Below, piece after piece: positions 5,635 to 63,574 of a stretch of DNA of 64,000 nt. The stretch's first letter is position 1. The number at the start of each line of letters is the position of its first letter. Source of the stretch: Bacteroidales bacterium (GTDB lineage: Bacteria; Bacteroidota; Bacteroidia; Bacteroidales; FEN-979); NCBI GenBank assembly GCA_023229525.1, contig JALNZC010000002.1, positions 33,090 through 97,089 of the forward strand, written 5' to 3'. The notes under the pieces were generated by a model that saw only the letters and a program-made list of their open reading frames with translations, did no database searches and had not been told where the DNA came from. The position numbers and the translations under genes were made by a program.

Positions 5635-5660
5635 CAATTAACCTGATCCGGAAAGAAAAA

Positions 5661-5691
5661 GGTTGTCTTCACAATAAGACAGCCTTTTTTT
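5661..5691 (+). terminator. Rho-independent terminator after the surface-protein gene pair.
   Basis: Stem GGTTGTCTT (5661-5669) pairs with AAGACAGCC (5676-5684), one G.U pair, 6-nt loop, followed by T7 (5685-5691). Confidence 0.7.
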
Positions 5692-5698
5692 ATCTTTG
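5691..5698 (+). promoter_or_regulatory. Bacteroidota sigma-A -7 box (TAnnTTTG).
   Basis: TATCTTTG lies 20 nt upstream of the ATG at 5718. Confidence 0.4.
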
Positions 5699-5717
5699 TC
5701 CGGTCAATTCTTGGGTA

Positions 5718-7289
5718 ATGCGGTTTTACGGATTTTTCCTTTTTATTTTGTTATTCTGGCCGATGACTCCGTCAATGGCTCAGCAATCACAGCGGGTCAA
5801 GGATGAGGATCAACCGTTACGCGTTGAAATTTCTGCCAAGTCCGATAATGAAACCTACCGGGTAATACCTTGTGACAGCAACGGTATGATCATGTTTTTC
5901 AGAAGCGTAGAAGTGGCTGCTGAAAACCAGGTCAAATGGTATTTTTCTTATTATGATAAAAATCTGACCCATTTATGGACAAAAAGCCTTCCCTTGTTGA
6001 ATGACCAGGATTACCGTATTCATCAACTGATCAGCGACACACTGGCTATATTATTTGTCCACACAGGGAAACCCCGTTCTGACGCTACTGATTTTAAGAT
6101 TCTACGTATATCACTCACAAAAGGAACCTTTATTCTTAACGATGGTAAACTTCCGGAAAACGGGGAGATCGCTGCATTCGGAATCCGGATGGATAATGCC
6201 TGGTTTGGGATCAACTTTAAGGTTAACGTGGGGCAAATCGGATATCTCCGGATGAGTACAGGTCTCCTTAAAACTTTTCCTTCAGGAATCGGAGCCCAGA
6301 TTAATATTCAATGGATCCGGCCCGATTCCCTTGGTGATCATGTTTCAGCCATAGTCAGTCGAAAAGTATCGAAGAAAACCACGGAATATTATCTTGTCAG
6401 GTACGATTCTACCGGTAAAATCCAACGCGAGATCCCCATCAATACAAACAATACCGGGCAGGAGCTCAACCATTTCCAATATATTGAAGAACAACCCGGA
6501 AGAGAGATGATCATGGGAAGTTATGGTCAGGAAACAGGTTCCGTTAACCAGAAGAACAGGGTAGCAGAAGAAATGACCGGGTTGTTTTCGGGTTCTGTTG
6601 TCAACAATTCTTTAAAAGCATTTTCATTTTACAATTTCCTGGAAATGAAAAATGTCAATGCATTGGTAGATGAAAGGGAAATGCTGAATCTCAGGAAAAA
6701 ATCATCAAAAAAAAATAAAGCATTAAATGAATTCTCTGTAGATTTTTCGCTACTGTTACATGAGATCATTACGTGGAAAAACCAGTACATTTTAATCAGT
6801 GAAATATATTCTCCACAGTACCATACAGAAAGTTTTACGGAATTTGATTATTACGGCCGGCCTTATTCAAACAACTATTCGGTTTTCGACGGTTACCGTT
6901 ATCTGAATGCTGTTGTAACCGCGTTTGATGAAGATGGAAAACTTTTATGGGATAATGTTCTTGAGATCCGTAATCTTGTTTCGTTCGATCTCAACACGAA
7001 AGTCTCGGCCTTTTTTAACGGGAACGACATAATGTTGTGCTATCTTAGTGACGGGAAAATCGGATCCAAAATCATTCATGAGGACAAGGTCATTGAAAAG
7101 CCCGTCTTTGCTTCACTTGAAATGCTTTACCCCGAAGATAAACTCCTCTCGGAATCAAAAGAGCGGATCCTCCCATGGTATGGTAACTATTTTATCGCTT
7201 ATGGATATCAGGAAATAAAAAACATTGCCTTATCCGGGAATAATAAGCGCATGGTGTTTTATTTCAGTAAAGTCAGATTCGACAAATAG
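5718..7289 (+). CDS. Hypothetical secreted protein with an N-terminal signal peptide; function unknown.
   Basis: 523-aa ORF with leader MRFYGFFLFILLFWPMTPSMAQQ. A promoter box lies upstream. I recognise no catalytic motif. Confidence 0.6.
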   Translation: MRFYGFFLFILLFWPMTPSMAQQSQRVKDEDQPLRVEISAKSDNETYRVIPCDSNGMIMFFRSVEVAAENQVKWYFSYYDKNLTHLWTKSLPLLNDQDYRIHQLISDTLAILFVHTGKPRSDATDFKILRISLTKGTFILNDGKLPENGEIAAFGIRMDNAWFGINFKVNVGQIGYLRMSTGLLKTFPSGIGAQINIQWIRPDSLGDHVSAIVSRKVSKKTTEYYLVRYDSTGKIQREIPINTNNTGQELNHFQYIEEQPGREMIMGSYGQETGSVNQKNRVAEEMTGLFSGSVVNNSLKAFSFYNFLEMKNVNALVDEREMLNLRKKSSKKNKALNEFSVDFSLLLHEIITWKNQYILISEIYSPQYHTESFTEFDYYGRPYSNNYSVFDGYRYLNAVVTAFDEDGKLLWDNVLEIRNLVSFDLNTKVSAFFNGNDIMLCYLSDGKIGSKIIHEDKVIEKPVFASLEMLYPEDKLLSESKERILPWYGNYFIAYGYQEIKNIALSGNNKRMVFYFSKVRFDK

Positions 7290-7295
7290 CGGAAA

Positions 7296-8576
7296 TTATC
7301 CCTCCATGTTGGCAATGATCTCTGAACCGAATTCAGAGCATTTGAGTTTTGTTGCTCCTTCCATCTGCCGTTCAAAATCGTATGTAACCCGTTTTTTCTG
7401 GATGGCTCCTTCCAGTCCTTTCAGAATGAGACCGGCGGCTTCGTTCCAACCTATGTATTCAAACATCATCATACCGGAAAGAATTAATGAACCTGGATTT
7501 ACCTGATCTTTCCCCGCATATTTGGGAGCAGTACCGTGTGTGGCTTCAAAAACAGCGTGTCCGGTGACATAGTTGATATTGGCTCCGGGTGCAATTCCAA
7601 TACCACCCACAATAGCAGCAAGTGCATCGGAAATATAATCGCCGTTCAGATTTAAAGTGGCAATGACTGAATATTCTGCTGGTCGTGTTAATATTTGTTG
7701 CAGAAAAGCGTCGGCAATGACATCCTTAATAATGATCCTTCCTTCAGTCATTGCCTCTTTTTGTGCCGTTTCGGCTGCAGTTTCTCCCGACTTTGCCTTG
7801 ATCGCATCAAACTGATTCCAGGTAAAAACCTGGTCGCCAAACTCCCGTTCCGCAAGTTCATATCCCCATTGTTTAAACTGTCCTTCGGTAAATTTCATGA
7901 TATTCCCTTTATGTACCAGGGTTACCGACGGTTTTTTATGGGTAATGGCAAAAAGGATTGCAGCCCTGACCAATCGTTCCGTACCCTCTTTTGAGACCGG
8001 TTTGATCCCAATGGAAGAGGTTTCCGGGAAGCGGATCTTTTTTACACCCATTTCCTGGATGAGGAAATGGATTATTTTTTTAGCTTCAGGAGTTCCTTGA
8101 AGCCATTCAATTCCGGCATAGATATCTTCAGAATTTTCACGGAAGATAACCATATCTGTCGTTTCGGGATGTTTCACCGGCGAAGGAACCCCGGTGAAGT
8201 ACCGAACGGGGCGAAGGCAGGTATAAAGGTCCAGATTCTGCCGTAAGGCCACATTAAGAGAGCGGATTCCTCCTCCAACCGGTGTAGTGAGCGGGCCCTT
8301 AATTGCCACAAGGTATTCACGGATGATATCGAGGGTTTCCACCGGTAACCATTCACCGGTTTGCTTAAACGCTTTTTCTCCTGCAAGTACCTCTTTCCAT
8401 TCAATTTTCCGGTTTCCGGAATAGGCTTTTTCAACTGCGGCATCAAAAACACGCACGCTTGCATTCCAGATATCCGGCCCGGTTCCGTCCCCTTCGATAA
8501 ATGGAATAACAGGGTGATCGGGAACGTTAAGTTTCCCATTTAATAATTTGATTTTTTCTCCATTCATAATTGTCAT
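7296..8576 (-). CDS. icd: NADP-dependent isocitrate dehydrogenase.
   Basis: [43 protein letters not shown] and [11 protein letters not shown] are hallmark prokaryotic IDH motifs. Length is 426 aa. Confidence 0.95.
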
Positions 8577-8592
8577 ATTTTAAGTTGGGGTT

Positions 8593-8650
8593 AAAAACTA
8601 TAAACTCAAAAGTCAAAACTCAAAACTCAAAACTAAAACTTAAAGATTAA
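8593..8650. repeat. Tandem 7-nt repeat array (AAAACTC family).
   Basis: aaaactataaactcaaaagtcaaaactcaaaactcaaaactaaaactt, immediately upstream of the icd start. Confidence 0.8.
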
Positions 8651-8670
8651 AAATTATTTGTTACTTTATT

Positions 8671-8760
8671 TATCCATTCTCTATTATCCAGCATCCATTA
8701 TCCAGCATCTTGTATCCAGCATCTTGCATCCAGTATCTTGTATCCTGCATCTTGCATCTT
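8671..8760. repeat. Tandem 14-nt repeat array (TATCCAGCATCTTG, two 7-mers), about 6.4 copies.
   Basis: tatccattctctat / tatccagcatccat / tatccagcatcttg x2 / catccagtatcttg / tatcctgcatcttg / catctt. The array abuts the stop codon of the 1529-aa gene. Confidence 0.9.
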
Positions 8761-8761
8761 T

Positions 8762-11700
8762 TCATTTCAGTGTTTTGATAAGTGCTCCCCATTGTTTGTC
8801 CACCTCAAAATAATGTTTCAAATAATAATTGCCCAGGAGGAAGTGAGCCTTAACGATTTTCACACCCCGGGCAGCCATGCTGGTGAAGAAACTTTTAATC
8901 ATCCCGGAAGCAATTCCTTTACCCTGCAACGAAGCGGTAACAACAATACCGTCGAGAAACACATTTTCATCTTCCAGGTAACGCCAGGTCAGACCACCAA
9001 TGATCTTGTCTGTTTCATCCGTTACGATATACTGATGGTCGTTATCGGAAATATCTTTGGGATAATTTTCACGGAAAAAGAGCTGATAGAGCTGACCTGT
9101 TTCACGAGGTTCAATCGGTTCGCGCAAGGTATACCGTTTTCCTGATTTATCCTGGATCGGGAAACGTACGACCACGTGCTCTTTTTGAAGTTGGCCCACT
9201 TTCAGGAAATCGATATCACCATTTCCCTGAATACGGGGGAAAACCATCCGGTTGAATACATTTTTATCGTCACTCTCCTTCAGAACTGATTGCAGGTCGG
9301 ATAATTCTATCAATTGTATAGCCAATCCATCGTGATTTTCGTGCATACGGTCAATCAAAAAATCGAATGCTGTTTGAATTTCGGAACTGGATTCCGAAAA
9401 ATAAGTATGACGGTAAAAATAAAAGCGGACAAGTTCAAGGTATTGATTCAGTTTGTAAAGTTCCATCAATTCCCCCATGGTTTGCTCCTTGGCTGCCAAT
9501 GTCGTTAACTGGTTCATTTTGTACCAATCCTGGTACTGATCGATTGCACTGAACAGGGCGACCGGCAGATAATATTTTTTCAATGAAGACTGGATATATT
9601 GATCCAAAAACGTCTGTATATCAGCACGATCAAAACAGGTCATGGATTTTCCGCCAATATCTTGCTGCAGGTTTTTCAGGAAACCGGATGCTTCATCAAT
9701 TCCAAGTGCCTCAATACATGCATCAAAAATCCAGTTTACGTCGAGTTGTTTTCGGCACCAGGGATAAAGTGAAGCGGTTTTGCAATAATAATCCTGGAGC
9801 ATCGGAGACACAAGCGAAAGGGTGTTCTTATATTTTGACCATCCTGCCAGAGAAAGCACCAGGGCGTTTTCACGGAAATCCATTTCGGGAATTGAGACAT
9901 TGGAGGGGGAAATCGAACCTGGAACAATCTGATAACCACTATGATGCCACGCTTTAAAAATAACGGCAAATGACTTGATAAAGATTTTTTTCCAGGCATT
10001 TGCCCTGATATAACCGGAAGATCTGTGAATTTCAGATAATTCCCTGATTTTATCCCAAGCGGTCAGACCTCCGATATACTGGGTTGTAAGGATTCCCAGA
10101 TTAGGCCGGCTGCTTCCAAGCAACGGAGCAACAGCAGGTTCATGGGGGAATCCCGCCAATGAAGCAAGCCAATAAAAAGTATCCGGACTTGGCCTTTTGG
10201 AAGGATTTTCACTCATAACCATATGCAAGTCATAGTGTTTGCCCCCTATTGTATTAATACTCAACCGGTAATGCTTGAATTCCTTGTAAGCCAGCAACCG
10301 TAATATCCAGATTCCCTGATCCGGAATCCCGGCCAGGTCAAATCCCTTTTCATTAAAAGTCAGAACAATACTCTCATGAAGAAAAGTGGTGGTTCGGAAA
10401 ATTTTGGTGATACTTTGTTTTTCAGTATCGGAAATTCCATGTTCAAATACCAGTTTTGATTTCCAGGAGGCAATGGAATAAGGTTTGGATTTACTCTCAA
10501 TTTCTTTCTCGAATACGGAGGCCAGCTGATAAAAATATTTTTCTGCTATTTTTGATAAGTATGGATCTTGTTTGTGTAGGATCCATCGCGATAATTCGGC
10601 ACGCATCGGAACATAGTATTCCATGTGTGTGACGGCAAAATTATAAAGCATCCCGAGCACATCTTCAAATGCGCGCCTGCGTTTTTTTGTTGCCGGCCAT
10701 TTCAGGTTTGTACGGTAATAATAAAGTCGTTGTTTCAGGGCATCGAGCCGGTGTTTACCAAAGTTGCTGGAAGCAATTTCGCGGATCGATTTTTCATTCA
10801 GAAAAGAAAGTCCCGATTCGATAAATGGTGGCATTGCCGCAATGTCTTCAGGACGAGGAACTTTTAGAAGGATCAACCGGTATGCAAGACAACGGATCTC
10901 CTCCTCTGGATGGTATGCAAGCGCTTCAAGCCGATGTCGTAAGGTAGTGGTCAGCCGGGGTTCTGCAGTCCCCAGAATCTTACCCAATTCTTCCAGTGAA
11001 ACGAGAGCTTCCTCAAAATCACGATAATATGTATTGAAAAGTAGATTATTGGCCCGGATTAGCATATTGTCACGAACCGATTTAAATTCGGGGAAAAACG
11101 TTTGTTTTAATTTTCTGAATCCGGATAAGGAAATATTGGAAGAAATAGATCCAAGCGGGATATCCCAGCCCTCTTTGACCGGAAAGAAACTGATCAATTC
11201 AGGATTTCCGGTCCAGATTTTTGGCTGACGGGTAAAAATCCCCAAGTCGATCAGGTCAGAATTTATGAAGTACCTGAGATCTCCTACCTGAAACCAGTTG
11301 CCCTTGTATTTCTTTATCCTGAGTGCCATTCTGTTACGGCGATTCACCAAACGATGGGATTGATAAACAATGTCAGTTTCCAGAATTCCAAGATCGCGAA
11401 ATAACCATTTCGGTATATTTATCGTAAACCCGTCACCAGAAATGCGTACGGTGTTACTCTGGTAAAGCTTTTCAATGATATCTCTGAAATTGGATTCGAT
11501 GACCTTACGATTGAACGATCCTTTGGGGGTAATTTCCCCTTTTTCCCCACTGAAATCGCGGTTGAGGAGGGTAAAATTGATTACCCGTTCATACGTCGCC
11601 ACATCATTGTTTGCCTTCATGACAATCTGATGGAAATATTCTTCCTGGTTTTCACCCGACAGCGCTCTGAACAAAGAATCTTCACGATCAGGGACGATGA

Positions 11701-52613: not shown

Positions 52614-53669
52614 ATGCTGGTAAAAACATATGGCAGTGCCGTATTTGGAATCACAGCTATGACCGTAACTGTGGAGGTTCATATGGATCAGGGTATCCAG
52701 TTTTTTATGGTGGGATTGCCCGACAATGCCGTCAGGGAAAGTCATCAGCGCATTGAATCAGCCTTACGGACAAACGGGTATCGGATTCCCGGGAAAAAGA
52801 TCACTATAAATATGGCGCCGGCTGACATCCGAAAAGAGGGGTCATCATATGATCTTACCATTGCTATGGGAATACTGGCCGCGAATGAAGTAATAAAACC
52901 GGATAAACTTGAACATTACATGATCATGGGGGAGCTTTCGCTTGACGGAAGCCTGCTGCCGATCAAAGGAGCCATATCCATTGCCCTTGAAGCCCAGCAA
53001 AAGGGATTCAAGGGGATTTTACTTCCTGTTCAAAATGCGAGGGAGGCAGCCATTGTACGTGAACTTGAAGTTTATGGGGTTCAGACAATCCGGGAAGTTA
53101 TTGATTTTTTTAATGACGCCTGCATTTTATCGCGTCAATTTCCTGAAGTAACAAACGAAACCGATCAAGCCTTTTCTGAACATGAATATGATTTTGCGGA
53201 TGTCAGGGGTCAGGAGAACATAAAACGTGCAATAGAAATAGCCGCTGCTGGTGGCCACAATGTCATTCTGATCGGACCTCCCGGAGCTGGAAAAACAATG
53301 CTGGCAAAACGGCTTCCATCCATTCTGCCCCCATTGAATTTCAGGGAAGCCATTGAAACAACCAAAATACATTCCATTGCAGGGAAACTTGGAGTAAACC
53401 GGTCACTGGTATCGATGCGACCTTTCAGGGCGCCTCACCATACAGTTTCGAACACGGCTCTTGTCGGTGGTGGTAGTATTCCGCAACCGGGAGAGATCTC
53501 TCTTGCTCACAATGGTGTTTTATTCCTCGATGAACTGCCGGAATTCAAAAGATCGGTTCTGGAAGTCTTGCGTCAGCCAATGGAAGATCGTGTCGTGACA
53601 ATCTCCCGCGCCAAGGTAGCCATTGAGTATCCATCCAGCTTTATGCTTGTGGCAGCAATGAACCCTTGA
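52614..53669 (+). pseudogene. comM: comM/yifB (Mg-chelatase-like AAA+ ATPase), truncated after about 351 codons by island insertion.
   Basis: N-terminal Lon-protease-like domain; Walker [10 protein letters not shown]; Walker [10 protein letters not shown]. The ORF ends ...FMLVAAMNP*, where family members continue with a Cys-rich CPCG zinc motif and about 150 more residues. Confidence 0.85.
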
Positions 53670-55140
53670 AGTTGCATTGCTTATTTCCCAGCTTTCCTAA
53701 ATTGGATGGAATATACGCAAGCTTGATTGCAATGTCTTCACGTCCAACGGTTATTTTCTCGGTAATGACTTCAATGATTGTCCGTTTTTCTTCAAAGGGC
53801 ATTTGGGGCCAGCGGTCATAGAGGTCTTTGGCGTCTCGTAATATGGTGTCTGATGATAGGGTTTGAATTTTAAGGAAATCGACTTCGGCCATGAGTTCAG
53901 GGAGCTGATTTTCGATTTGAGCTAATTGTTCTTCAATGGGTTTGTAGTGACGGGGGAAGCTGTCCTTGGAGATTTCGCCGGACAGTCTCATGGCCACTAG
54001 TTCATTCATTTCTTTGCGGATTCTGTCAGCTTCGCTAGTTTGCCGGGACAGCATGGTTTCCTTTTCTTGAATAATTGAATCTGTTTGGGAAAGATAGGTT
54101 TTGATGTCCTGATCAGTGAGTAAAAAGGCTTTAAGTTGTTCATGATAGATTTCATCAATGTCTGCGGCCAGAATTCTGTTTTTGCAGGCTTTACAAGTAA
54201 ATACGTTGGAAGGATGGAAAACATACATCTTTTTACCGCAAGAGCAGGACAATAGACCGGAAAGAAGGTGGGCTGGTTTAGGTCCCGGTTTCCGGCGTTT
54301 GATTTCCTGTTCTTCTAAAATTCGATTACATTCATTCCAAAGCTTATCAGAAACTACAGCCGGACAAGCGGTAACAATCCATTCACTTTCCGGTTTAAGA
54401 GTCCAATGTTTACCCTCCCCTAAGCTTTTTGTGTAGTTGGCCCGGCGTTCACCTTTGGCCGTTGGGTCTTTAATCAATCGATCAACAGTTGTGTCAGAAA
54501 ATTTTGAGCCGTTCCGGGTCCGGTATCCGAGGTCGTTTAACTCTTTGGCCGTAGTTTTTTTTCGTTTATGCTTTAAAAATATCTCGTAAAGGAGTTTCCG
54601 GATTGGGGCTTCTTTTTCATCAACCACCAGCTCCTTTCCGTCCCAACGATAGCCAAACGAGCCGGCCCCACCCAGTGGCTTGCCTAATTTAGCGCGGACG
54701 GGAACTGAAGCGGCTACCCGGCTGGAAATTTCTTCCCGTTCCCATTGAGCCATAGCCGCTATCATGGTGTAAAAGAGTCGTCCAGCCGGGGTGCTCGTGT
54801 CTATGGCTTCCTGAAGCGATATTAGGTCAGCATTGCTTTCCCGAAAGAGGTCAGCAAAGTCGAGCAGTTCTCTGGTATTTCGGGCTAATCGGGCCAGCTT
54901 GGAAAAGATAAGTCCGGTAATGTTACCATGTTTAATATCTCTTAACATCCTCTTGGTTTCCGGGTGATCCATCACGGATTTGCCGGAAACTGCTTCTAAA
55001 TGATAGACCTCAACAACATTCCATTCTTTGGCTTCAGCATATAATCGAGCCCGTTTTTCGTGATGTTCAGGCGATTCTCCTTTTGCCTGATCTTCGGTAC
55101 TGACACGAATCCAGATACCGACTTCTTTCTTGGTTTCCAT
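53641..55140 (-). CDS. Large serine recombinase (integrase).
   Basis: Resolvase-type catalytic region [12 protein letters not shown], a recombinase domain, the zinc-ribbon [25 protein letters not shown], and a C-terminal coiled coil. I prefer the ATG at 55140 (METKK) over the TTG at 55173. The last 9 or so codons read into comM antisense sequence. Confidence 0.9.
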
Positions 55141-55302
55141 TCTATTGTGTTGCCGTGAGCCAAAATTACTCAATTGTTATGATCGTGAAGCAGCTAAAGG
55201 GGCGAATTTTTATATATTTGCCGGGTTATTATCGTTCCTAATCCAAATAATTGCTGAAGTTACCCCCATCATTGGAAAGCAAACCAAATCTACTCATTAA
55301 CC

Positions 55303-57813
55303 ATGACAGAAGAAATAAAAGAAGGCTATATACACGATTATGTTTCTGGTGTTGAAATAAAAGCCACACCTGAAGAAATTGAAGCCGTCCAAGTTTATTC
55401 AAAAATTCTTGTCGAGGACTATGAGTACCCAAAAAACCACCTTCAAACTCGACCTCAATGGAGGGTAAAAGTAAGACCTTCTGATAACAAAAAAGAGTAT
55501 CCTGTTGATATCGTTATTTTTGAGAATAACAAAAAGGAAGATGGAGCGGAGATCATTATCGTTGAATGTAAAAAAAGGAACCGTAAAGACGGTAGAACAC
55601 AGCTAGAAGATTACTTAAGATTTTCTAGAGCCAGTATTGGTGTGTGGTTCAATGGTGATGAAAAATTATTTCTTAAGAAATCTGAAAAAAAAGGAAAGGT
55701 TCTGTTTGAAGAAATACCAAATATTCCAAAGTATGGTGAGAAGCTTGAAGATATTGGACTGTACAAAAGGAAGGATTTAAAAATAGCCCATAACCTTAAA
55801 AGTGTTTTTAAAACGATAAGAAACTACCTGGCCGCCAACGCAGTTGGAATTACGCGAGACGAAGTATTCGCTCAACAAATTATCAATGTGATCTTCTGCA
55901 AGATTTACGATGAGCGCTTTACTAAACCGGAGGAAACAGTTAATTTTCGTGCGGGGATTGAGGAAGACTCAAATATTATAGCTAACCGAATAAAGGATAT
56001 TTTCGAAAAGGTTAAAACACAATACGGTGATGTTATTGAGAAAAATGACAGAATATTATTAGATGATTCCTCATTAACATATGTTGTAGGTGAGCTGCAA
56101 ATATATTCAATCACTCAAAGTGAGAGGGATGCAATAGCGGATGCCTTTGAAACATTTATTGGCCCCTCTTTAAAGGGTGGCCAAGGTCAGTTTTTTACTC
56201 CACGCAATATTGTCAGGCTAATAATTGAGATCGTCAATCCGTCTGAGACCGACAAAGTAATTGATCCGGCCTGTGGTAGTGGCGGATTTCTCGTTGAAGG
56301 GTTACGACATGTTTGGCGGAAGATTGACCAAAATGGTAAAAAATTCAACTGGCCTGATCCTGAGATTTATGCTGAGAAACAGAAGGCCGCCATTCAGAAT
56401 TTTAGGGGAATCGATAAGGATAATTTTCTTAGCAAGGTTGCTAAGGCTTACATGGCGATAATCGGTGACGGTCGCGGGGGCGTGTTTTGCGAAAACTCTC
56501 TTGAGAATTTTAAAAACTGGAAGGTCTCAACCAGAAATGGAATTAGTATTGGCGAATATGATGTGGTTGTTACTAATCCACCGTTTGGAAAAAAACTTAA
56601 GATTGATGACATCGGAATTCTAACTTCTTTTAATCTTGGCCATAAATGGAAAAATGACAAGAAAATAAAAACTTTCGAATTGACCAATATCCTTCAAGAT
56701 GCCCAGGCTCCTCAAATTCTTTTTGTTGAGAGATGCTTAGAGTTATTGAAGGATGGAGCTAAAATGGGATTTATTGCCCCGGAAAGTATGTTTTGTAACC
56801 CAAGTCATAGATACATCGTTCAGTATATTAAGTCTATAGCCAAAATAAAGGTAATAATTTCGTTGCCTGAGGAGTTGTTTCAACCATATACCCATGCTAA
56901 AACTTGCCTGGTTGTTCTTGAAAAGGACCTAAAAAAGGCGAAAGCTGATCACGAGATATTTATGGCTGTTGCTAAGTGGTGCGGTCATGATTCAAGGGGC
57001 CTTGAAATCCCCTTTGATGATATCCCCAAGATTCAGAATAGATATAATCAATATGTGACAGATGGGAAGATTGAATATGATCATTTAGGATTTACAATTT
57101 TAGAATCTCACATTAAAAGTAATGTTTATTTACCTAAATATTACAATCCGGAAATGCAGGATAAATTGAAAATTCTATCAGAAACTCACGACTTGGTCGA
57201 ATTTAAGGACTTAGTTAAAGCAAAGATTATTAGAGTATCAACTGGTGATGAAGTTGGCAAATTGAGTTATGGAACTGGTAATATCCCTTTTATTCGGACG
57301 TCTGATATCGCAAACTGGGAAATTAAAAGTGACCCAAAACAGGGTCTGAGCAATGAAATCTATGAGTCATTAAGGGAGAAGCAAGATGTTTGTGAAAATG
57401 ATGTCTTAATGGTTAGAGATGGAACATATTTAGTTGGCACCTGTGCTATTGTCACCAAACTCGAAACAAAGATTCTTTATCAGAGCCATTTGTACAAAAT
57501 CCGGTCACTTGACCCTGAGAAATTGCATCCATATTTGTTATTGGCGTTACTTTCCGCACCAATCGTTAAAGAACAAATAGCCGCTAAGCGTTTTACTCAG
57601 GATATTATTGACACGCTTGGGGAACGATTATATGAGCTCGTTTTACCTATACCGAAGAATGCCAAGGATAAGGAGAAAATTATAAAAAACATTGAAGATG
57701 TAATTTCTTATAGGATAAAAGCGAAGGAGATTGCTCGAACCACTATCTTAGAGTTAGCTCCTGATGGCACTGATTTTACAGATGAATATGATTTCTTGAC
57801 TATGAGCAAGTAA
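55303..57813 (+). CDS. Single-chain Type IIG-like restriction-modification enzyme: HsdR-N-like PD-(D/E)xK nuclease, N6-adenine methyltransferase and an HsdS-like target-recognition domain.
   Basis: Nuclease YPVDIVIF...IIIVECKK. Methylase FFTPRNIVRLI, VIDPACGSGGFLVE (motif I) and VVVTNPPFGKK (motif IV NPPF). The C-terminal single TRD has GNIPFIRTSDI. Confidence 0.8.
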   Translation: MTEEIKEGYIHDYVSGVEIKATPEEIEAVQVYSKILVEDYEYPKNHLQTRPQWRVKVRPSDNKKEYPVDIVIFENNKKEDGAEIIIVECKKRNRKDGRTQLEDYLRFSRASIGVWFNGDEKLFLKKSEKKGKVLFEEIPNIPKYGEKLEDIGLYKRKDLKIAHNLKSVFKTIRNYLAANAVGITRDEVFAQQIINVIFCKIYDERFTKPEETVNFRAGIEEDSNIIANRIKDIFEKVKTQYGDVIEKNDRILLDDSSLTYVVGELQIYSITQSERDAIADAFETFIGPSLKGGQGQFFTPRNIVRLIIEIVNPSETDKVIDPACGSGGFLVEGLRHVWRKIDQNGKKFNWPDPEIYAEKQKAAIQNFRGIDKDNFLSKVAKAYMAIIGDGRGGVFCENSLENFKNWKVSTRNGISIGEYDVVVTNPPFGKKLKIDDIGILTSFNLGHKWKNDKKIKTFELTNILQDAQAPQILFVERCLELLKDGAKMGFIAPESMFCNPSHRYIVQYIKSIAKIKVIISLPEELFQPYTHAKTCLVVLEKDLKKAKADHEIFMAVAKWCGHDSRGLEIPFDDIPKIQNRYNQYVTDGKIEYDHLGFTILESHIKSNVYLPKYYNPEMQDKLKILSETHDLVEFKDLVKAKIIRVSTGDEVGKLSYGTGNIPFIRTSDIANWEIKSDPKQGLSNEIYESLREKQDVCENDVLMVRDGTYLVGTCAIVTKLETKILYQSHLYKIRSLDPEKLHPYLLLALLSAPIVKEQIAAKRFTQDIIDTLGERLYELVLPIPKNAKDKEKIIKNIEDVISYRIKAKEIARTTILELAPDGTDFTDEYDFLTMSK

Positions 57814-57827
57814 AACGATAATGTAGT

Positions 57828-59675
57828 CTATTTTTTCGTAAAATTATGTAGCTCCGGCGTCCTTGCCGTAAATAATGCATATTTACTTAGCAGATTTCTG
57901 GCATATGGATTATGTAATCTTCTTACCCGCTTTATTCCATATTTAATCGAATTTTCTTCTAAAGAAATGATCTTCCCTAAGGAGGAGTTTAATGATATCT
58001 TTTTTGCTTTAAGCAAAAGGATGGTTCCGGCAGTTTCAGTGGCTAGATTTTTAATATCTTCTCTCAAATCTTTAATAGTTTTGAACATTTTTTCAAAATC
58101 GGTTTTCAGTTTTGGCAATCGTGATTCCCAGGATGAACTTATTAAATTCTGGTCAAAATCGATTAATGCTAAACTTGAAGCCTCCCCATCTTGATTAAAA
58201 ACACATAAATCTAATACGTTTAAATCGACTAGGATGGGCTTTTTGAGGTTTACTACCCCTATGTTCTGGTTGTCATCAGAATAACAATCAAGGAGAAATT
58301 TATTGGCTAAATAGGAATTTTGATTTCTATAAAGTTTTTGAAAGTTCATTATAAGTTTATCGACCTCATCATTATTTTTCTCATCGATCTTTAGTAATGT
58401 CGCAAATTCAGCGCCTCTTTTCCCATCACTCCTCATCATTAAATCACATTCTTGGGCAACAAGTATATAATTACCTTTATTATCTCCTTCGTAAACTTCA
58501 AAAATATCTCCATTTCCTAAAGGTAAATGAAGTGAGTTTAGTATTTTACTTTCAAGATAAATTTCAGCCCTTCTTAGTTTATCGCTGTCTTTATTTGGCT
58601 GACTGTCAAATTTGACCTCAAAACGAATATCACTTATTTTTTTTGCTTGTTTAATATCCGGATTAACAGTTTTGGGATAGGAGCTTGAAAACATAAATTC
58701 TCTAATCTTCTGATTATAAAGAATGTCGAAAAACCTTAATAGTGTTTCCACTTCCCAGACACCTTCTTCATTTGAAGAAATAAGGACTGATTGATCAAAA
58801 TCGTATGTATCAATGGATTTTATCCCCTCTAACACATCTGTTTGTACCTTAGTAACAAGTTCCAGGGATTCAGATTTTATTTTCTCGAAATATTTATCCA
58901 GAATTGCCTTTTTTATTCCATCACATATTAATTCTGGTGTTGAAATTCTTTGTTTTGTTAATGCAAAAAAATCTTTTGTATCCAGGCCAATCTCCTTTGC
59001 TAACTCTCCTCGCTTTTGAAATTCTTCATGCACCGAACTGATAGTATGGGTGATTAGAATACAAAAAGCTTTATCTCCCAGGCCCGTGTTTTTCACTTCC
59101 AATATTAGACTATTTCCCTTGGTTCTTCCTGTTGTGAATTCCTCATCAATAGCCTTGGTCAAATCTTGATCAAAAATAAGTAATACTTTTTCCGTTCCAG
59201 TTATTTTCTTATCAATATCCTTTGAAATAGTGCGCCATTCTTCAGGACCAATCAACTTTAAATACCTCTCTTCAAATATATTCTTTAATTCATGTGTCTT
59301 ATCATAATCATCTGGTTCGAAGGTTGTATCATTTAATCCGGCAAAACTCTTATAGATTGCAGATTTTTTAGGATCATCAAAGGTTTCCCATTTTTTAAGG
59401 AAATCCTCCAAAATAACATCGATGTCTGGTAAAGTAAAATTTATATCATTATTTAAAATTGCGATCACCTTTTCAGTTTGACTAGCTCCGTGCAATGTTC
59501 TGATATGACCTGCAATAATCGAATATACATCATTAATATTGTAATCATCAATAAAATATGCTTCTTTTATCCCTACCTGATTGAGTAAGTGGCCTAGTTT
59601 TTTTATAGTCTCCGGCAGGACATTTTGTTGTATAACTTTTAGTTCAGGCTCTTCACTCATAAGATCAATTTTCAA
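57828..59675 (-). CDS. 615-aa protein of unknown function, third gene of the methyltransferase/GHKL operon and a candidate effector or partner.
   Basis: A long AT-rich ORF. Its start (TTG 59675 or ATG 59660) overlaps or abuts the stop of the upstream gene (TGA 59665-59667). No catalytic motif recognised. Confidence 0.75.
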   Translation of the reverse strand: MKIDLMSEEPELKVIQQNVLPETIKKLGHLLNQVGIKEAYFIDDYNINDVYSIIAGHIRTLHGASQTEKVIAILNNDINFTLPDIDVILEDFLKKWETFDDPKKSAIYKSFAGLNDTTFEPDDYDKTHELKNIFEERYLKLIGPEEWRTISKDIDKKITGTEKVLLIFDQDLTKAIDEEFTTGRTKGNSLILEVKNTGLGDKAFCILITHTISSVHEEFQKRGELAKEIGLDTKDFFALTKQRISTPELICDGIKKAILDKYFEKIKSESLELVTKVQTDVLEGIKSIDTYDFDQSVLISSNEEGVWEVETLLRFFDILYNQKIREFMFSSSYPKTVNPDIKQAKKISDIRFEVKFDSQPNKDSDKLRRAEIYLESKILNSLHLPLGNGDIFEVYEGDNKGNYILVAQECDLMMRSDGKRGAEFATLLKIDEKNNDEVDKLIMNFQKLYRNQNSYLANKFLLDCYSDDNQNIGVVNLKKPILVDLNVLDLCVFNQDGEASSLALIDFDQNLISSSWESRLPKLKTDFEKMFKTIKDLREDIKNLATETAGTILLLKAKKISLNSSLGKIISLEENSIKYGIKRVRRLHNPYARNLLSKYALFTARTPELHNFTKK

Positions 59676-62175
59676 TAACCGAAGATAAGTTTAGTTGAAA
59701 TATATATCGATGATTATACTGATTAGTTTCATTAAGTAGTAAAATTTCACATCCAGATGATTCAAGTAATTGCTGAACAATAAATAGCCCCAAGCCTCTT
59801 CCGATTCTTTTAGGCTTAGTTGTTATAAATGGTTGGAATAGACTGTCTTGAACGTTTGGGTCTACTCCCTTGCCATTATCAAATATCCTCAAGAAAGGTT
59901 CCTTTAGCTCAATGGTAATTAATGGATCAAAACTGGATTCAATACTTTTTTTCTCTTTGAGCCAATATTCAGAATTAATAATAATATTATCAATCACTTG
60001 GGTAATTTTCCCTTTGTTTATGCGAATGCTATAATCCTGCCCAGGTTTAACGAAAACAATTTGAATTTTTCCTGAAAATCGTTCTTTATAATAATCGATG
60101 ATTTCATCAAGAAAACTTGTCATGCCAAGTAATTCCTTACTTTCTCTTACATATTTCAAGGAAGGGGAAATATGACTTAATTGTTTTCTAAATGATTTTG
60201 TGGCATTTTTAATGTATTCGATATAAATGTTGATAGAAAGTTTATCAAGGGTATCCTTGCTATTAGTCTTTTTTATTATCCGATCAGTTTCAAGAACGAT
60301 CCTGTCAACAATATTAAGTAATTCGTGAGAAAGAGCTTCGGAAGTAAGTCCTAGTCCGGCTAATTCTGCAAATTCCGAAAGTTGCTGTTCTAGGTTTTCT
60401 ATTTGTGGCTGTAAGAATTCAATATGTTCGTCTATTTTTTTCGTTTCGGCTAAGGTTGACATAACTTCCTCTAGCATAGCTTGCGCCTCTTCAATAATCT
60501 TGGCTAACCTTTGTAAACGGTCTGTAAACTCATGGTTATCTCCTGGAATTGATTGGCCCGTCGGGTTTTCAGATAAGTCAGAGACTTCATTCTCAATCGA
60601 TTTTAAGTTCTCCTTTATTAAAGTTGCTCTTTGACTTAATCTTTTCGCGGACAATGAAGTATCTCGCAATTGCTTAAAGGAATCTTTGATGTCCTTAACT
60701 CCGGTTGATTGTTGGGCGATTTTTATTTTATATTCATTATAACTTCTTCTAGTCCCTTCCAAAATGTTATTGATTTGTTCAATAAAATAATCCATAATTC
60801 GATTAAAATTTCTTGAATATGGATTATCCATAAAACCTTCTCTATCAGTCTTCTCTTTTAAGTTGTAATTGTCTCTAGCACTGATAGATACGAATCCAAT
60901 GATGTTTTTTGGTCGCAAGCCATAAAAAGAACTTCCAGATGTTTGCAAATTTGCTAAATTGAGCCAGTCTTGCCCATTTATTCCATATGGTTTAATCCCA
61001 AAGCCATCTCTAAATACCCGTACTCCAACTTGGTTCTGTACAATCCTCTTAAACTCTGAGAAAGAATCAAATACACTTTCAATGGCTTTAGAAGTTTGAA
61101 AATAGAAATCATCCATTTCACCATTAAAATTTCCAGGGTGGGCGATAACCTCTTCATTTTTGTTTTCGTCATGAAGTACCGCCATCTTATCAAGATCACG
61201 CAAATTAACCTCTTTCTTAAAACTAAAAAACCCGCCATGTAATTTTGAATATTCCAAATTTTGAATAGAATACCTTTTATTATGGCTTGAACTTGTGAGA
61301 TACGAAAAAAAATCCTTTCCACTATCTGGAAGAATGAATTTCTCATAAAAGGCAGTGTTCTCTATTGAATTTGAACCATTTATTTTTTGCAGTTTAATTT
61401 CACCTTCAAAAAATAGTTTATCCTCAGTTACTTTAAAGGAGTACCGAGAAACTGCGTTTTCTCTAATACTGTCATTAAGTTCATCAAGATCAACATTTTG
61501 TCCATTCAATTTTAAATAAACGGTAAAAACTCGCTTCTCCTTATAGGGGAATATCATCTGAGAAACTTGCCCTCGGAATCTATCCCAGGAGCTTCCTTCC
61601 CACCTTAAGGGTTCTTTAAGATTAGTTATTACGAGTACTGTGCCTTTCTCGTTTTTCGCCTTTGGAAAAGTGCCGAGATGAACTGGAACGGAAGTTAGCC
61701 ATATATCATCATTAAAATCATTCCAGTCAAAGGCAACGTGATTTTTTGTGTCGCTGTCAATTTTCCCGGTAAACAGTTCTAACCTGTTTCCCAATCGTTG
61801 GGTGCTTAATCTTCCAACCCCTTTCTCTCCAATCGGAGTGCGTCCTTTGGGAGTAACCTTACCGTCTTCTCTAAATTTCTTTTTCGCAGAAAGAGATATT
61901 TTCATCCAACTATTCCAAATGTCGCTGTCCGACATCCCGAATCCATTATCCTCAATCTTTATATATCCCTTGGCTGAGTCTTGATAAAAAGCATTGGGAT
62001 TTGATAGGTAGTCTTTTGTGTTTACTTCGACCTTAACCCAATCGGCATCAGCGTCATATGAATTTTTAATCAATTCCATGATTGCTGTAACTTCATCGGT
62101 AACCAGCTCTTCGCCAAGTTGTCGAATGACAGCGGCACTAATGTCGAAATGCGTAATATTGTTTTGATCAGCCAA
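59665..62175 (-). CDS. 836-aa dual-GHKL protein: an N-terminal MORC/MutL/Hsp90-like ATPase, a coiled coil, and a C-terminal histidine-kinase core (DHp H-box plus HATPase).
   Basis: N-terminal Bergerat motifs MELIKNSYDADA (ExxxNxxD), IEDNGFGMS and GEKGVGRLS. C-terminal H-box ALSHELLNIV, N-box VIDNIIINSEYW, G1 FDNGKGVD, F LFQPFITTK and G2 GRGLGLFIV. The TTG start overlaps the methyltransferase stop by 8 nt. Confidence 0.8.
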   Translation of the reverse strand: MADQNNITHFDISAAVIRQLGEELVTDEVTAIMELIKNSYDADADWVKVEVNTKDYLSNPNAFYQDSAKGYIKIEDNGFGMSDSDIWNSWMKISLSAKKKFREDGKVTPKGRTPIGEKGVGRLSTQRLGNRLELFTGKIDSDTKNHVAFDWNDFNDDIWLTSVPVHLGTFPKAKNEKGTVLVITNLKEPLRWEGSSWDRFRGQVSQMIFPYKEKRVFTVYLKLNGQNVDLDELNDSIRENAVSRYSFKVTEDKLFFEGEIKLQKINGSNSIENTAFYEKFILPDSGKDFFSYLTSSSHNKRYSIQNLEYSKLHGGFFSFKKEVNLRDLDKMAVLHDENKNEEVIAHPGNFNGEMDDFYFQTSKAIESVFDSFSEFKRIVQNQVGVRVFRDGFGIKPYGINGQDWLNLANLQTSGSSFYGLRPKNIIGFVSISARDNYNLKEKTDREGFMDNPYSRNFNRIMDYFIEQINNILEGTRRSYNEYKIKIAQQSTGVKDIKDSFKQLRDTSLSAKRLSQRATLIKENLKSIENEVSDLSENPTGQSIPGDNHEFTDRLQRLAKIIEEAQAMLEEVMSTLAETKKIDEHIEFLQPQIENLEQQLSEFAELAGLGLTSEALSHELLNIVDRIVLETDRIIKKTNSKDTLDKLSINIYIEYIKNATKSFRKQLSHISPSLKYVRESKELLGMTSFLDEIIDYYKERFSGKIQIVFVKPGQDYSIRINKGKITQVIDNIIINSEYWLKEKKSIESSFDPLITIELKEPFLRIFDNGKGVDPNVQDSLFQPFITTKPKRIGRGLGLFIVQQLLESSGCEILLLNETNQYNHRYIFQLNLSSVIEN

Positions 62176-63574
62176 GCTTCCTAAATATTAGAATGTCTTC
62201 ATTATTCATTAAAGCCGTGTCTTTATTTCGCTTAGCCATCCGCTTATTGATTATTTCGCGCTCGACCTGAGTTACTAACTTTCCACCCTTGCTCTCGATT
62301 AATTCAATAAGAATTTTGCTGTTAGGGATAGTAAGCCCGGCCACCCTTCTATTGCCAATAGTCCATATCTGGTAGCTATTCTTTTTTAATACCTGGAAAA
62401 TATTATCCAAAGTCTTATTTAGGTCCAAAATAAAAGCCGCCACCTTATTATGTTTATTTTCGTTGGTATTAATAATACTCTGATAAGTATTTCTAAAGGT
62501 TGGGCTTATTTCAAGTAAAGATATCAAATCTACTTGATTTAACTGTGATGTGATCCCCCCTAATGATCTTCTATCAATTTCGCTAGTTGTCCTTAAGAAA
62601 TCCCTTGTTGCAGTCTCATCAATATCTGGGAGATCAATCCATTGCAGCGGCAAATATGAGTGTTGTCCATAAGTGACGGTCGTCTTATTATCCCCATACG
62701 GTGGAGAAGTAACTAATAGATCGTAAAAGGGTTCAGCGGTAGGGTTGAATATCCCATCTTTCGAATTTAAAAGCTTGATTTCTACGTTTCCAGTATAACT
62801 TCCATTATGAACCATCCCAAATTTTGTCAGATAGTCCACGTGAGTCCTGTAGTCCTCAAGGCTTTTCGCTAAATGATATTTGAAAAGATCAGTGGCAGAT
62901 AAGTTACGGTTCAGTATTTCTTCTTGAGGTCTAGCGTGCAACTTAAAGGTGGAAGTTCGATCATTAGAGGTTAACCGAACGGTTTCTGAAAGTATCACCC
63001 ATAAGAACCTTCTGATAGAAAGATTATCCACTTTCCGAATGGCTCTAACGAGCCTGGAAAGTTCTTTGGCAATTTCCGGCTTAAACCATTTACTTAGCCC
63101 ACGGAAATCCACTTCAATATATTCGGACTTATCGGCTCCGATATTTTCTACCAGTTGAGATTGGCTATGCTTCAGGTCATTCAGAAAATATGGCCCAGTC
63201 CGAACTTTTGCTATAAGTATCGCTAATGGGTTGATGTCGAACCCATAACAATCAATGCCAGTTTCCATGCAAGCCGCTAAAGTTGTTGCTGATCCCATAA
63301 ATGGGTCCACCATGTTTTTGATCTCTGAGTCCGCCTGAAGTACAATTTCGATGAGCTTTCGTTGGACAACCGGGACCATCATTGCCGGGTACTGAAAGAA
63401 ATTACGGAGATATTCTCTTCGGTTAAATTCCGGGCAGGTCCATATATTTGAGTTCTCCCCAGTGGCTTTGGTAACCTCAGATATGATCCTCTTGTCTATT
63501 TCAATATACCTATCTACAACCCCTATTTTATTAGGAATCAGTTCATAAAAAGTGATTTTGCGTTGTGATAACAC
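62168..63574 (-). CDS. SAM-dependent DNA methyltransferase (N6-adenine or N4-cytosine class), first gene of the operon.
   Basis: Motif I VDPFMGSATTLAAC at about aa 90 and motif IV LVTSPPYGDN at about aa 290, with a variable region of about 200 aa between them (alpha-like order). GTG start. Confidence 0.8.
   Translation of the reverse strand: MLSQRKITFYELIPNKIGVVDRYIEIDKRIISEVTKATGENSNIWTCPEFNRREYLRNFFQYPAMMVPVVQRKLIEIVLQADSEIKNMVDPFMGSATTLAACMETGIDCYGFDINPLAILIAKVRTGPYFLNDLKHSQSQLVENIGADKSEYIEVDFRGLSKWFKPEIAKELSRLVRAIRKVDNLSIRRFLWVILSETVRLTSNDRTSTFKLHARPQEEILNRNLSATDLFKYHLAKSLEDYRTHVDYLTKFGMVHNGSYTGNVEIKLLNSKDGIFNPTAEPFYDLLVTSPPYGDNKTTVTYGQHSYLPLQWIDLPDIDETATRDFLRTTSEIDRRSLGGITSQLNQVDLISLLEISPTFRNTYQSIINTNENKHNKVAAFILDLNKTLDNIFQVLKKNSYQIWTIGNRRVAGLTIPNSKILIELIESKGGKLVTQVEREIINKRMAKRNKDTALMNNEDILIFRKLG

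Follow-up and report, generated by a model that had tools for sequence, protein, structure and literature searches.

The 64,000-nucleotide window analysed here, from contig JALNZC010000002.1 of a Bacteroidales bacterium, carries on its minus strand three adjacent genes encoding a DNA methyltransferase, a soluble histidine kinase of 836 amino acids (aa) and a third protein, which we call the receiver-effector. Based on its predicted structure and on residue conservation among its homologues, we conclude that the N-terminal domain of the receiver-effector is a highly diverged, catalytically complete receiver (REC) domain. We further suggest, with a probability of roughly 0.55, that this protein is the receiver-effector of a phosphorylation-gated, restriction-modification (R-M)-like defence or addiction cassette made up of the three genes. 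Coordinates of all features are given in Table 1. Residues of the receiver-effector are numbered throughout from the TTG codon at 59675, which opens a frame of 615 aa.

The receiver-effector was modelled with AlphaFold2 on a 31-sequence alignment, and the model has a mean predicted local distance difference test (pLDDT) score of 86.6 and a predicted template modelling (pTM) score of 0.73. Its N-terminal part follows the (beta/alpha)5 flavodoxin-like order, as in receivers. In brief, the predicted strands are beta1 (residues 36-42), beta2 (139-142), beta3 (163-169), beta4 (203-209) and beta5 (237-240), and the predicted helices span residues 144-157 after beta2, 215-229 after beta4 and 247-286 after beta5, with short ones after beta3. 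The last of these, alpha5, is long and runs into the C-terminal output module. When the whole model was compared with the PDB using Foldseek, it matched the receivers of Spo0A and PhoB with target-normalised template modelling (TM) scores of 0.49-0.61, probabilities of 0.57-0.75 and E-values of 0.4-1.1.

Conservation was assessed in 163 full-length homologues of 16-50% identity, and the residues corresponding to the CheY quintet proved to be near-invariant. The first residue of the acidic pair, D43, is kept in 162 of the 163 homologues, and the second, D44, is an aspartate in 156, a glutamate in six and an asparagine in one. The predicted phospho-acceptor D169 and the lysine K241 are invariant (163/163 each), and position 209 is occupied by either threonine (94 homologues) or serine (69). 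As in CheY, these residues sit at the C-terminal ends of beta1 (D43/D44), beta3 (D169), beta4 (T/S209) and beta5 (K241).

Between beta1 and beta2 the domain carries an insertion of approximately 85 residues. AlphaFold2 predicts five helices here (residues 50-63, 67-77, 85-96, 101-115 and 121-133) in place of a single alpha1. In canonical receivers, alpha1 docks on the DHp domain of the kinase. An earlier reading of this gene, made from the DNA alone and referred to below as the sequence-only reading, had suspected a receiver-like alpha/beta pattern in the four peptides EAYFIDDY, KVLLIFDQDL, KAFCILITHT and FFALTKQR, with a spacing longer than that of CheY. All four peptides are present, they hold D43 and D44, D169, T209 and K241, respectively, and these residues are conserved in the 163 homologues. 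The suspected pattern agrees with the predicted (beta/alpha)5 fold and the near-invariant quintet, and the longer spacing stems mainly from the five-helix insertion. Structure prediction and Foldseek, two of the checks proposed in that reading, returned a receiver-like fold with Spo0A and PhoB receivers among the matches.

Profile comparisons place the domain at a large distance from canonical receivers. The Pfam receiver family Response_reg gave no match to the receiver-effector, canonical receiver hidden Markov models (HMMs) miss its N-terminal domain, and other REC models of Pfam match weakly in two of 36 relatives, with one match each. An hhalign comparison with six canonical receivers gave an E-value of 0.013 and a probability of 3%, with D169 placed on D57 of CheY. 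After removal of the insertion, the E-value was approximately 0.001 (down to 0.0008) and the probability 21-25%, over the segment from beta1 to alpha3, and this weak match is in register with CheY, PhoB and Spo0F. Profile searches against PDB sequences, using the N-terminal alignment and a diverse full-length alignment, gave chance matches only.

The silence of the receiver models counts against our assignment. Together with the low hhalign probabilities and the large insertion replacing alpha1, it would suit an alternative in which no phosphorylation ever takes place on the N-terminal domain, be it a pseudo-receiver or some other flavodoxin-like domain, and its link to the kinase is structural only. 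We consider this very improbable. Pseudo-receivers are defined by the loss of catalytic residues (PMC12632262), and the present domain is regarded as a receiver and not a pseudo-receiver because all five defining residues are retained, with D169 and K241 invariant in the 163 homologues. In addition, the partner kinase keeps the phospho-donor histidine and the HisKA phosphatase motif H-E-x-x-N. In their order (DD, D, T/S, K) the motifs agree, as we read them, with receivers rather than with HAD phosphatases, and a HAD-phosphatase reading of the domain was rejected on this ground. The conserved residues thus point to a genuine phospho-accepting receiver paired with the 836-aa kinase, which we regard as probable.

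The kinase contains an ATPase domain at either end, recognised by Pfam as HATPase_c_3 (kinase residues 30-154) and HATPase_c (residues 724-813). Its conservation was assessed in 64 homologues of 24-61% identity. In a PDB profile search, residues 24-142 align with the ATPase domains of Hsp90 and TRAP1. The Bergerat motifs of this N-terminal GHKL domain (E34, N38, D41 and A42; D76, G78 and G80; G116-K118-G119-G121-R122; T179) are 91-100% conserved, the catalytic glutamate E34 included. The C-terminal part, residues 562-827, matches the kinases LvrB, ThkA, ZraS, HK853 and EnvZ in the PDB with E-values down to 5.5e-19 when a profile of 25 homologues is used. H617, with its codon at 60325-60327, is conserved in 100% and E618 in 97% of the homologues. 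The H box in the window reads S-H617-E618-L-L-N, which is the HisKA kinase/phosphatase motif H-E-x-x-N. The boxes around the ATP lid, i.e. N730/N734, the G1 box D766-G768-G770, F780/F783 and the G2 box G792-G794-G796, are likewise 91-100% conserved. Scans with Pfam, NCBIfam and PDB profiles found no nuclease domain in the 836-aa kinase.

Between the N-terminal ATPase and the coiled coil of the kinase lies a middle block (residues 347-477, window positions 60745-61137) that has neither a Pfam nor a PDB-sequence match and is 91-100% conserved in the 64 homologues. Its invariants are P347-G348-x-F350, R389-D390-G391-F392, T412, S416, R445-E446-G447-F448 and R477. This block may be the transducer or the DNA-reading part of the sensor.

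The methylase, kinase and receiver-effector genes occur together across a wide range of genomes. Their order is the same in all seven contigs that were looked up by exact protein, including that of the most distant relative (24% identity), and on a Hymenobacter plasmid; in one of the seven, from Maribacter, the kinase and receiver genes are both split. A scan of one genome per GTDB species gave 80 loci with a receiver-effector homologue. A kinase homologue is found in 74 of these and an N6_N4 methylase homologue in 68, and most of the others end at a contig edge. Sixty-five loci, each with at least 4.3 kb upstream, were informative about linkage. All three genes are intact in 58 of them, and in four an intact methylase gene accompanies a truncated kinase or receiver gene. 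Loci L024 and L063 have retained the methylase and carry a truncated kinase. In the remaining three informative loci the methylase is not intact: two carry degraded copies of all three genes, and the third has a lone receiver gene. Among the 65 there is no case of an intact kinase and receiver pair that is without the methylase. In two further loci the methylase gene is adjacent but lies in divergent orientation.

The pairwise identities of the three proteins co-vary, with r=0.95 for receiver-effector versus kinase and r=0.83 for receiver-effector versus methylase. The receiver-effector evolves fastest: its median pairwise identity is 25%, and the values of the kinase and the methylase are 37% and 41%, respectively. 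We found no fourth conserved gene family within 3.5 kb across the 80 loci, and therefore no alternative candidate for an effector. Genes that occur sporadically within this distance encode integrases (7 loci), HNH-like proteins (4), Vsr (4) and XRE/HTH-like open reading frames (ORFs) (3).

Some loci depart from the intact arrangement. In Maribacter halichondriae CP107030 (L005/L012), frameshifts have split the kinase into parts of 116 and 696 aa and the receiver-effector into parts of 152 and 458 aa, and the methylase is intact. This cassette is flanked by a tyrosine integrase and a relaxase/HipA region. Such a pattern, familiar from R-M systems, is what one would see if an R-M-like module on a mobilisable element were losing its harmful part. 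An Armatimonadetes metagenome-assembled genome (L056, positions 4442-8242) has a 1,266-aa ORF in which kinase residues 9-703 are in frame with the receiver-effector from approximately residue 130 on. We rejected this ORF as a Rosetta-stone fusion, as the catalytic HATPase_c domain of the kinase and the first ~130 residues of the receiver-effector are gone; it looks like an in-frame deletion derivative. In L038, approximately 1.3 kb (5317-6643) separates the kinase and receiver-effector genes, and most of it is filled by an ORF of 411 aa on the opposite strand (5394-6629), which may be an insertion element.

The minus-strand ORF of the receiver-effector has 615 codons, from TTG 59675 to TAG 57828-57830, and codon positions were verified. 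We consider ATG 59660 to be the most likely start, giving a protein of 610 aa, because an identical database protein has 610 aa and all 30 aligned homologues start at the equivalent of Met6. This ATG lies 4 nucleotides (nt) past the kinase stop codon TGA 59665-59667, and a start at TTG 59675 would mean an 11-nt overlap with the kinase gene. The end of the methylase gene and the start of the kinase gene overlap by 8 nt. No excess of promoter-like sites was found inside the three-gene stretch, and no terminator-like site. The 8-nt overlap, the 4-nt gap and these two negative results fit a single operon, and judging from the gene junctions the three genes are predicted to be translationally coupled. 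The sequence-only reading had described the gene as tightly coupled to that of the kinase and had taken a kinase neighbour as a check on the receiver idea. Both points are borne out by the 4-nt gap and by the kinase found in the seven contigs, on the Hymenobacter plasmid and in the 74 loci.

The output module was modelled separately (residues 287-615), with a pLDDT of 84.9 and a pTM of 0.81. In brief, three helices (residues 290-348) lead into a beta-rich core (373-500), which is followed by two hairpins, one helical (514-556) and one of beta-strands (569-587), and by a last helix (591-604). The core carries the signature G389-D390-I-F ... [YF][IV][LV]x[AG]-Q408-[PE]-C410-D411-L-x-x-R415-x-x-G418-x-R420. 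Invariant or nearly so in the 163 homologues are R314, E371, G389, D390, Q408, C410, D411, R415, R420, D489, G497, R583, R605 and D611. C410, R415 and R583 are each found in 163/163, and positions 371 (E or D) and 489 (D or E) are acidic in all. The conservation pattern looks like that of an enzyme, and we speculate from it, and from the lack of a structural neighbour, that the module may be a new catalytic fold. The earlier reading had expected an unrecognised output module in the C-terminal part, and this holds for a stretch of 330 residues with no family match and no significant structure match. Its statement that the protein has no nuclease, TIR, SIR2, PLD or protease motif is likewise in line with the empty results obtained against Pfam, PADLOC, NCBIfam, PHROGs and PDB sequences.

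The sole coherent group in the Foldseek search with the output module is MazF, which accounts for five structures among the top 50 matches. These come from Staphylococcus aureus, Mycobacterium tuberculosis and Escherichia coli, with probabilities of 0.47-0.96, E-values of 0.025-0.84, target-normalised TM scores of 0.41-0.51 and root mean square deviations of 3.8-6.7 A. Compared by eye with the EndoA and CcdB sequences, the core has in common with them a first strand of the type 'G-D-I-hydrophobic' and also the pattern 'hydrophobic strand, then Q-x-(x)-D ... G-x-R'. There are differences from the MazF/PemK/Kid and CcdB proteins: the catalytic residues of MazF are not conserved in the receiver-effector, and its putative SH3-like barrel is embedded in a module of 330 residues. 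No small conserved flanking family that could correspond to a MazF-type antitoxin gene was found across the 80 loci. Pfam found none of the PemK_toxin, CcdB and helix-turn-helix (HTH) families in 20 C-terminal sequences. A comparison of profiles with MazF/Kid was likewise negative, which leaves the weak resemblance in fold alone.

Other catalytic readings of the module were rejected as well. For a PD-(D/E)XK nuclease (E371 ... D390 ... Q408-x-C410/D411), the (D/E)xK triplet would lie after the strand and not inside it, position 409 is mostly proline, and no restriction endonuclease is a Foldseek neighbour. For a caspase-like 'Q-x-C' or other Cys protease there is no invariant histidine; H610 is present in 123/163 and H210 in 124/163 homologues. 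Neither a PTP/rhodanese-like 'C-x4-R' loop nor an RNase H-like topology is backed by a Foldseek match. We hold a nuclease-type output to be possible, if somewhat doubtful.

The output module could instead act in a transcriptional response regulator, such that upon phosphorylation it binds DNA and activates the methylase or unlinked restriction or defence genes. Such a role was proposed in PMC8011034 and for AbrC of the Ambrosia system (10.1101/2025.09.30.679545), both of which are treated below. The last 100 residues, helices followed by an Arg/Lys-rich beta-hairpin (F-G-I-K-R583-x-x-R586-L), contain a possible wing, and no catalytic motif was recognised in the module. Nevertheless, we regard a transcriptional regulator as unlikely. 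No HTH or winged helix was found in 20 C-terminal sequences (Pfam, E<=1) or among the 50 best Foldseek matches in the PDB. The 330 residues, with an invariant cysteine, four invariant or near-invariant acidic residues and five invariant arginines, are atypical of a DNA-binding output of approximately 100 residues. Further, the clade is without a linked nuclease to regulate, and the lack of kinase and receiver pairs without a methylase is easier to explain if the pair harms unmodified cells. We therefore favour an effector over a regulator because of the size and conservation pattern of the module, the lack of any other effector gene, the lack of methylase-free kinase and receiver pairs and the weak toxin-like fold.

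In another alternative, the C-terminal module is a sensor of a phage protein or of a nucleic-acid feature and the receiver, acting for instance as a scaffold or a sink for phosphate, feeds back on the kinase, while the GHKL ATPase or unlinked factors execute defence. The fast evolution of the receiver-effector would fit a surface under arms-race selection, and the N-terminus of the kinase is homologous to that of real restriction enzymes. It should be noted that the kinase is without a nuclease domain, and that the invariants of the output module are polar and catalytic-looking, not those of a variable binding surface. Phosphate-sink receivers, moreover, are normally single-domain proteins. 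We consider a sensor of this kind to be improbable.

Based on these observations, we suggest the following mechanism for a phosphorylation-gated cassette. The methyltransferase would mark the host DNA, and the MORC/Hsp90-type ATPase of the kinase, together with the conserved middle region, would serve as an intracellular sensor. Upon a signal, the HisKA-type core would autophosphorylate on H617, a step suggested by its intact H, N, G1, F and G2 boxes. The phosphoryl group would then pass to D169 of the receiver, with D43/D44 holding Mg2+ and T209 and K241 acting as the switch; the predicted fold, the invariant residues and the strict gene linkage argue for this transfer. The five-helix insertion is probably a private docking surface that would insulate the pair from other two-component systems. 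Phosphorylation would release or dimerise the 330-residue C-terminal module, which would attack nucleic acid, either by cutting unmarked DNA or by cutting RNA with growth arrest as the outcome. A role of the cassette in defence or addiction is somewhat favoured by us over other roles.

Several points weigh against this explanation. It rests on sequence and predicted structure for the clade, and that the kinase responds most likely to unmodified or foreign DNA is something we purely infer. The output module, as well as the whole receiver-effector, has no match in Pfam, PADLOC, NCBIfam, PHROGs or PDB sequences, library scans recognised no nuclease, protease or NTPase motif in the module, and Foldseek found nothing for it at E<=1e-3 in the PDB or BFVD. 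MazF is only a weak structural match, with no TM score above 0.51 and no E-value below 0.025, its catalytic Arg and Thr are, in our reading, without conserved counterparts in the module, and hhalign against MazF/Kid gave probabilities of 0.3-0.4%, over the G-D-I segment only. Both descriptions of related systems lean towards transcription as the role of the REC protein (PMC8011034; 10.1101/2025.09.30.679545), and methylation in the Ambrosia system gave phages no protection (10.1101/2025.09.30.679545).

The receiver-like idea is not new. A related family was called response regulator (RR)-like in 2021 by Bellieny-Rabelo, Pretorius and Moleleki (Genome Biol Evol; PMC8011034), who described, by computation only, modules that pair Response_reg_2 (PF19192) with HEF_HK (PF19191), with 91.6% linkage over 644 regions, and suggested that they are tied to R-M systems in a regulatory way. 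These modules share with the cassette an upstream methyltransferase, a soluble HATPase_c_3 + DHp + HATPase_c kinase and then an RR-like protein. The kinases are comparable in having a His-Glu/Asp H box in the DHp domain and a paraMORC-like N-terminal ATPase. The DHp of those modules was described as new and corresponds to HEF_HK. The RR-like protein of PMC8011034, like the receiver-effector, has an acidic pair, an acceptor Asp, a Thr, a Lys, extended alpha1 loops and no other known domain, and both families occur in Hymenobacter, Rhizobium, Agrobacterium and Desulfovibrio-type genomes. Those modules are recognised by an RR-like gene no more than three genes away from a GHKL gene of this architecture, and here the two are adjacent in the window and in 74/80 loci.

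There are also differences from the modules of PMC8011034. PF19192 and PF19191 were not reported for the receiver-effector, the kinase or approximately 55 diverse relatives, in a Pfam copy for which the presence of both models is unconfirmed, and neither is listed among the Pfam annotations precomputed for the best 120 homologues of the kinase. The methylase of the cassette is uniformly of the N6_N4 (SPPY) type, whereas those of PMC8011034 are mostly C5. The C-terminal module of the RR-like protein was not analysed in PMC8011034, where a regulatory role is proposed for the protein. From this comparison of domains and residues, the cassette is probably a sister clade of these systems, outside the Pfam families as now defined.

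Ambrosia is an anti-phage system of Pseudomonas aeruginosa reported in 2025, encoded by AbrR-AbrA-AbrB-AbrC-AbrD (bioRxiv 10.1101/2025.09.30.679545). Its parts are an XRE regulator, an N6 methylase, an HATPase (Hsp90-like) kinase, a REC protein and a type IV HNH nuclease. Defence needs all five genes and is abolished by mutation of the acceptor Asp (D60A) or of any predicted domain. AbrC is said to carry a winged helix and is read as a transcriptional activator, and reporters of the cluster were induced on infection (10.1101/2025.09.30.679545). Ambrosia thus shares with the cassette a methylase, an HATPase kinase and a REC protein in one cluster. Compared by description only, it differs in having five genes, a distribution mainly in Pseudomonadales and an HNH protein taken as the effector, whereas the cassette has three genes. 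The HNH nuclease has no counterpart in the cassette, with an HNH-like ORF within 3.5 kb in 4/80 loci, and an XRE/HTH-like ORF is found in 3/80; for both, the window shows 426 nt upstream of the methylase. Unlike AbrC with its reported winged helix, the receiver-effector has no HTH by Pfam or among its top Foldseek matches.

The working logic proposed for the cassette is that of Detocs, a defensive two-component system. In this system, an intracellular kinase reportedly senses infection, and phosphotransfer to a receiver switches on a fused enzymatic effector, by which infection is halted. Detocs is said to have neither a methyltransferase nor a MORC-type ATPase, and to include an extra receiver protein for buffering and an effector that is a PNP-type ATP nucleosidase. 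PADLOC models gave no match on the receiver-effector.

The BbrUII/HgiDII restriction enzymes (NCBIfam NF050001) have an N-terminus that matches kinase residues 10-190 with an E-value of 2e-18 and 66 bits, as compared to a cut-off of 550. Both these enzymes and the paraMORC GHKL enzymes (PMC2292703) are paired with a methyltransferase, as is the kinase here. They differ from the cassette in that BbrUII/HgiDII have a fused nuclease in place of the histidine-kinase core, while the presumed effector of the cassette is a separate, receiver-gated protein.

If our reading of the cassette is true, a His-to-Asp phosphorelay, as is usual in bacterial signalling, would stand between the recognition of DNA and the attack on it. 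Restriction-type systems normally couple recognition and cleavage in one complex. The phosphorelay arrangement would allow amplification, reset by the phosphatase activity of the kinase, and a diffusible effector. Taken further, the cassette could be a 'two-component restriction enzyme', in which the kinase, by means of a DNA-clamping ATPase of the MORC type, reads the methylation of DNA and Asp phosphorylation activates a nuclease or toxin of unseen fold. We put this forward tentatively and think that it is more probably wrong than right. If true, methylation-linked immunity would include a further major class that has gone unrecognised and is separate from R-M types I-IV, BREX, DISARM and MADS. 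The three-gene form, which is without the HNH nuclease of Ambrosia, offers a clean test of whether the REC protein is a transcription factor or an executioner. The overall kind of system is already known; what is both widespread and uncharacterised is its output domain and the minimal form with three genes.

Table 1. Features of the three-gene cassette in the window; residue numbers refer to the respective proteins.
Feature	Position	Strand	Basis
Receiver-effector coding sequence	57828..59660	-	ORF list, identical 610-aa protein, homologue alignment, junction
Receiver (REC)-like domain, residues ~30-286	58818..59588	-	AlphaFold2, Foldseek, CheY quintet conservation
D43-D44 codons, acidic pair ending beta1, predicted Mg2+ ligands	59544..59549	-	alignment, codon check
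Helical insertion, residues 46-134	59274..59540	-	AlphaFold2 helices; hhalign gain on deletion
D169 codon, predicted phospho-acceptor ending beta3	59169..59171	-	163/163; hhalign pairs it with CheY D57
T209 codon, Thr/Ser switch residue ending beta4	59049..59051	-	alignment
K241 codon, lysine after beta5	58953..58955	-	invariant 163/163
Output module, residues 287-615	57831..58817	-	separate model; no family or significant structure match
Beta-rich core, residues 373-500	58176..58559	-	Foldseek MazF resemblance; conserved signature
836-aa soluble GHKL ATPase-histidine kinase	59665..62175	-	Pfam, PDB profile matches, conserved neighbour
MORC/Hsp90/MutL-type Bergerat ATPase, kinase residues 10-190	61606..62148	-	PF13589 E 2.6e-18; motif residues 97-100% conserved in 64 homologues
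DHp + catalytic domain, kinase residues 570-836	59668..60468	-	conservation in 64 homologues; alignment to solved HisKA kinases
468-aa DNA methyltransferase (N6_N4_Mtase, motif IV SPPY)	62168..63574	-	PF01555 E 5.6e-15; PDLC03360 E 8.5e-99

The methylase matches PDLC03360, which is the PADLOC model for type II methyltransferases. Its catalytic SPPY is found in a later position, so that the order is permuted relative to the Pfam model. The SPPY motif is commoner in N4-cytosine than in N6-adenine enzymes. The mark set by the methylase may be N4-methylcytosine (m4C).

The cassette is set in a mobile defence island. The GC content of the cassette stretch is 0.32-0.37, as compared to 0.42-0.46 in the flanks. 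A comM/Mg-chelatase-type gene on the plus strand (52614-53669) is only 351 codons long and ends partway through its AAA+ domain, and a gene for a large serine recombinase of 510 aa (53641-55173, minus strand) starts where comM breaks off. An island seems to have integrated into comM here, with this junction as its left end and the right end past the window. The gene at 55303-57813 (plus strand) is convergent with that of the receiver-effector, with 14 nt between the stop codons. It encodes a single chain of 836 aa that starts with HSDR_N_2, which is PD-(D/E)XK-like, and further contains N6_Mtase and a domain resembling type I specificity subunits, and its best NCBIfam match is the MADS methyltransferase MAD2, with 384 bits at a cut-off of 720. 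The protein appears to be a second, independent R-M-type enzyme of the island. Related loci adjoin type I R-M genes, RelE and HipA toxins, relaxases and integrases. In the most distant of them (L002, a JGI metagenome contig, 24% identity), a second N6_N4 methylase and a small-terminase-like gene precede the cassette, which is followed by a complete type I R-M system (HsdM, HsdS and HsdR). This locus is a dense defence island, possibly prophage-derived.

The sequence-only reading had called the protein an orphan, and this did not stand. A word-indexed search of 5.8 billion proteins gave 31 relatives, all of them unnamed or 'hypothetical', and an exhaustive HMMER search of 1.84 billion cluster representatives gave 1,360 profile matches at E<=1e-3, of which 1,132 were at E<=1e-10 and 663 at E<=1e-30. 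Among the 150 best profile matches listed, nearly all are full-length, with 560-690 aa. A homologue search started from a 40-sequence alignment again gave just the close set, and no model of Pfam, PADLOC, NCBIfam or PHROGs recognises the family. Rhizobium, Agrobacterium and Pseudodesulfovibrio are the sources of its named members. The hosts of the 80 loci belong to the Bacteroidota, Chloroflexota, Alpha-, Gamma- and Deltaproteobacteria, Campylobacterales, Planctomycetota, Actinomycetota, Acidobacteriota, Gemmatimonadota, Nitrospirota, Lentisphaerota, Armatimonadota and Verrucomicrobiota, and the cassette is spread over at least 12 phyla. A scan of 2.9 million viral contigs gave a single match, and we therefore assign the gene to cells or mobile islands and not to phages.

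A tblastn search against plasmids returned two records, and no link from these to the enterobacterial family of PMC8011034 was found. The Hymenobacter monticola plasmid NZ_CP094538 (L009, positions 6995-8791) carries a homologue of the receiver-effector with 29% identity over 96% of the length. This homologue is named 'cytochrome P450' in RefSeq, a name to which our analysis gives no support. Its neighbours are a site-specific methyltransferase and an 842-aa 'ATP-binding protein'.

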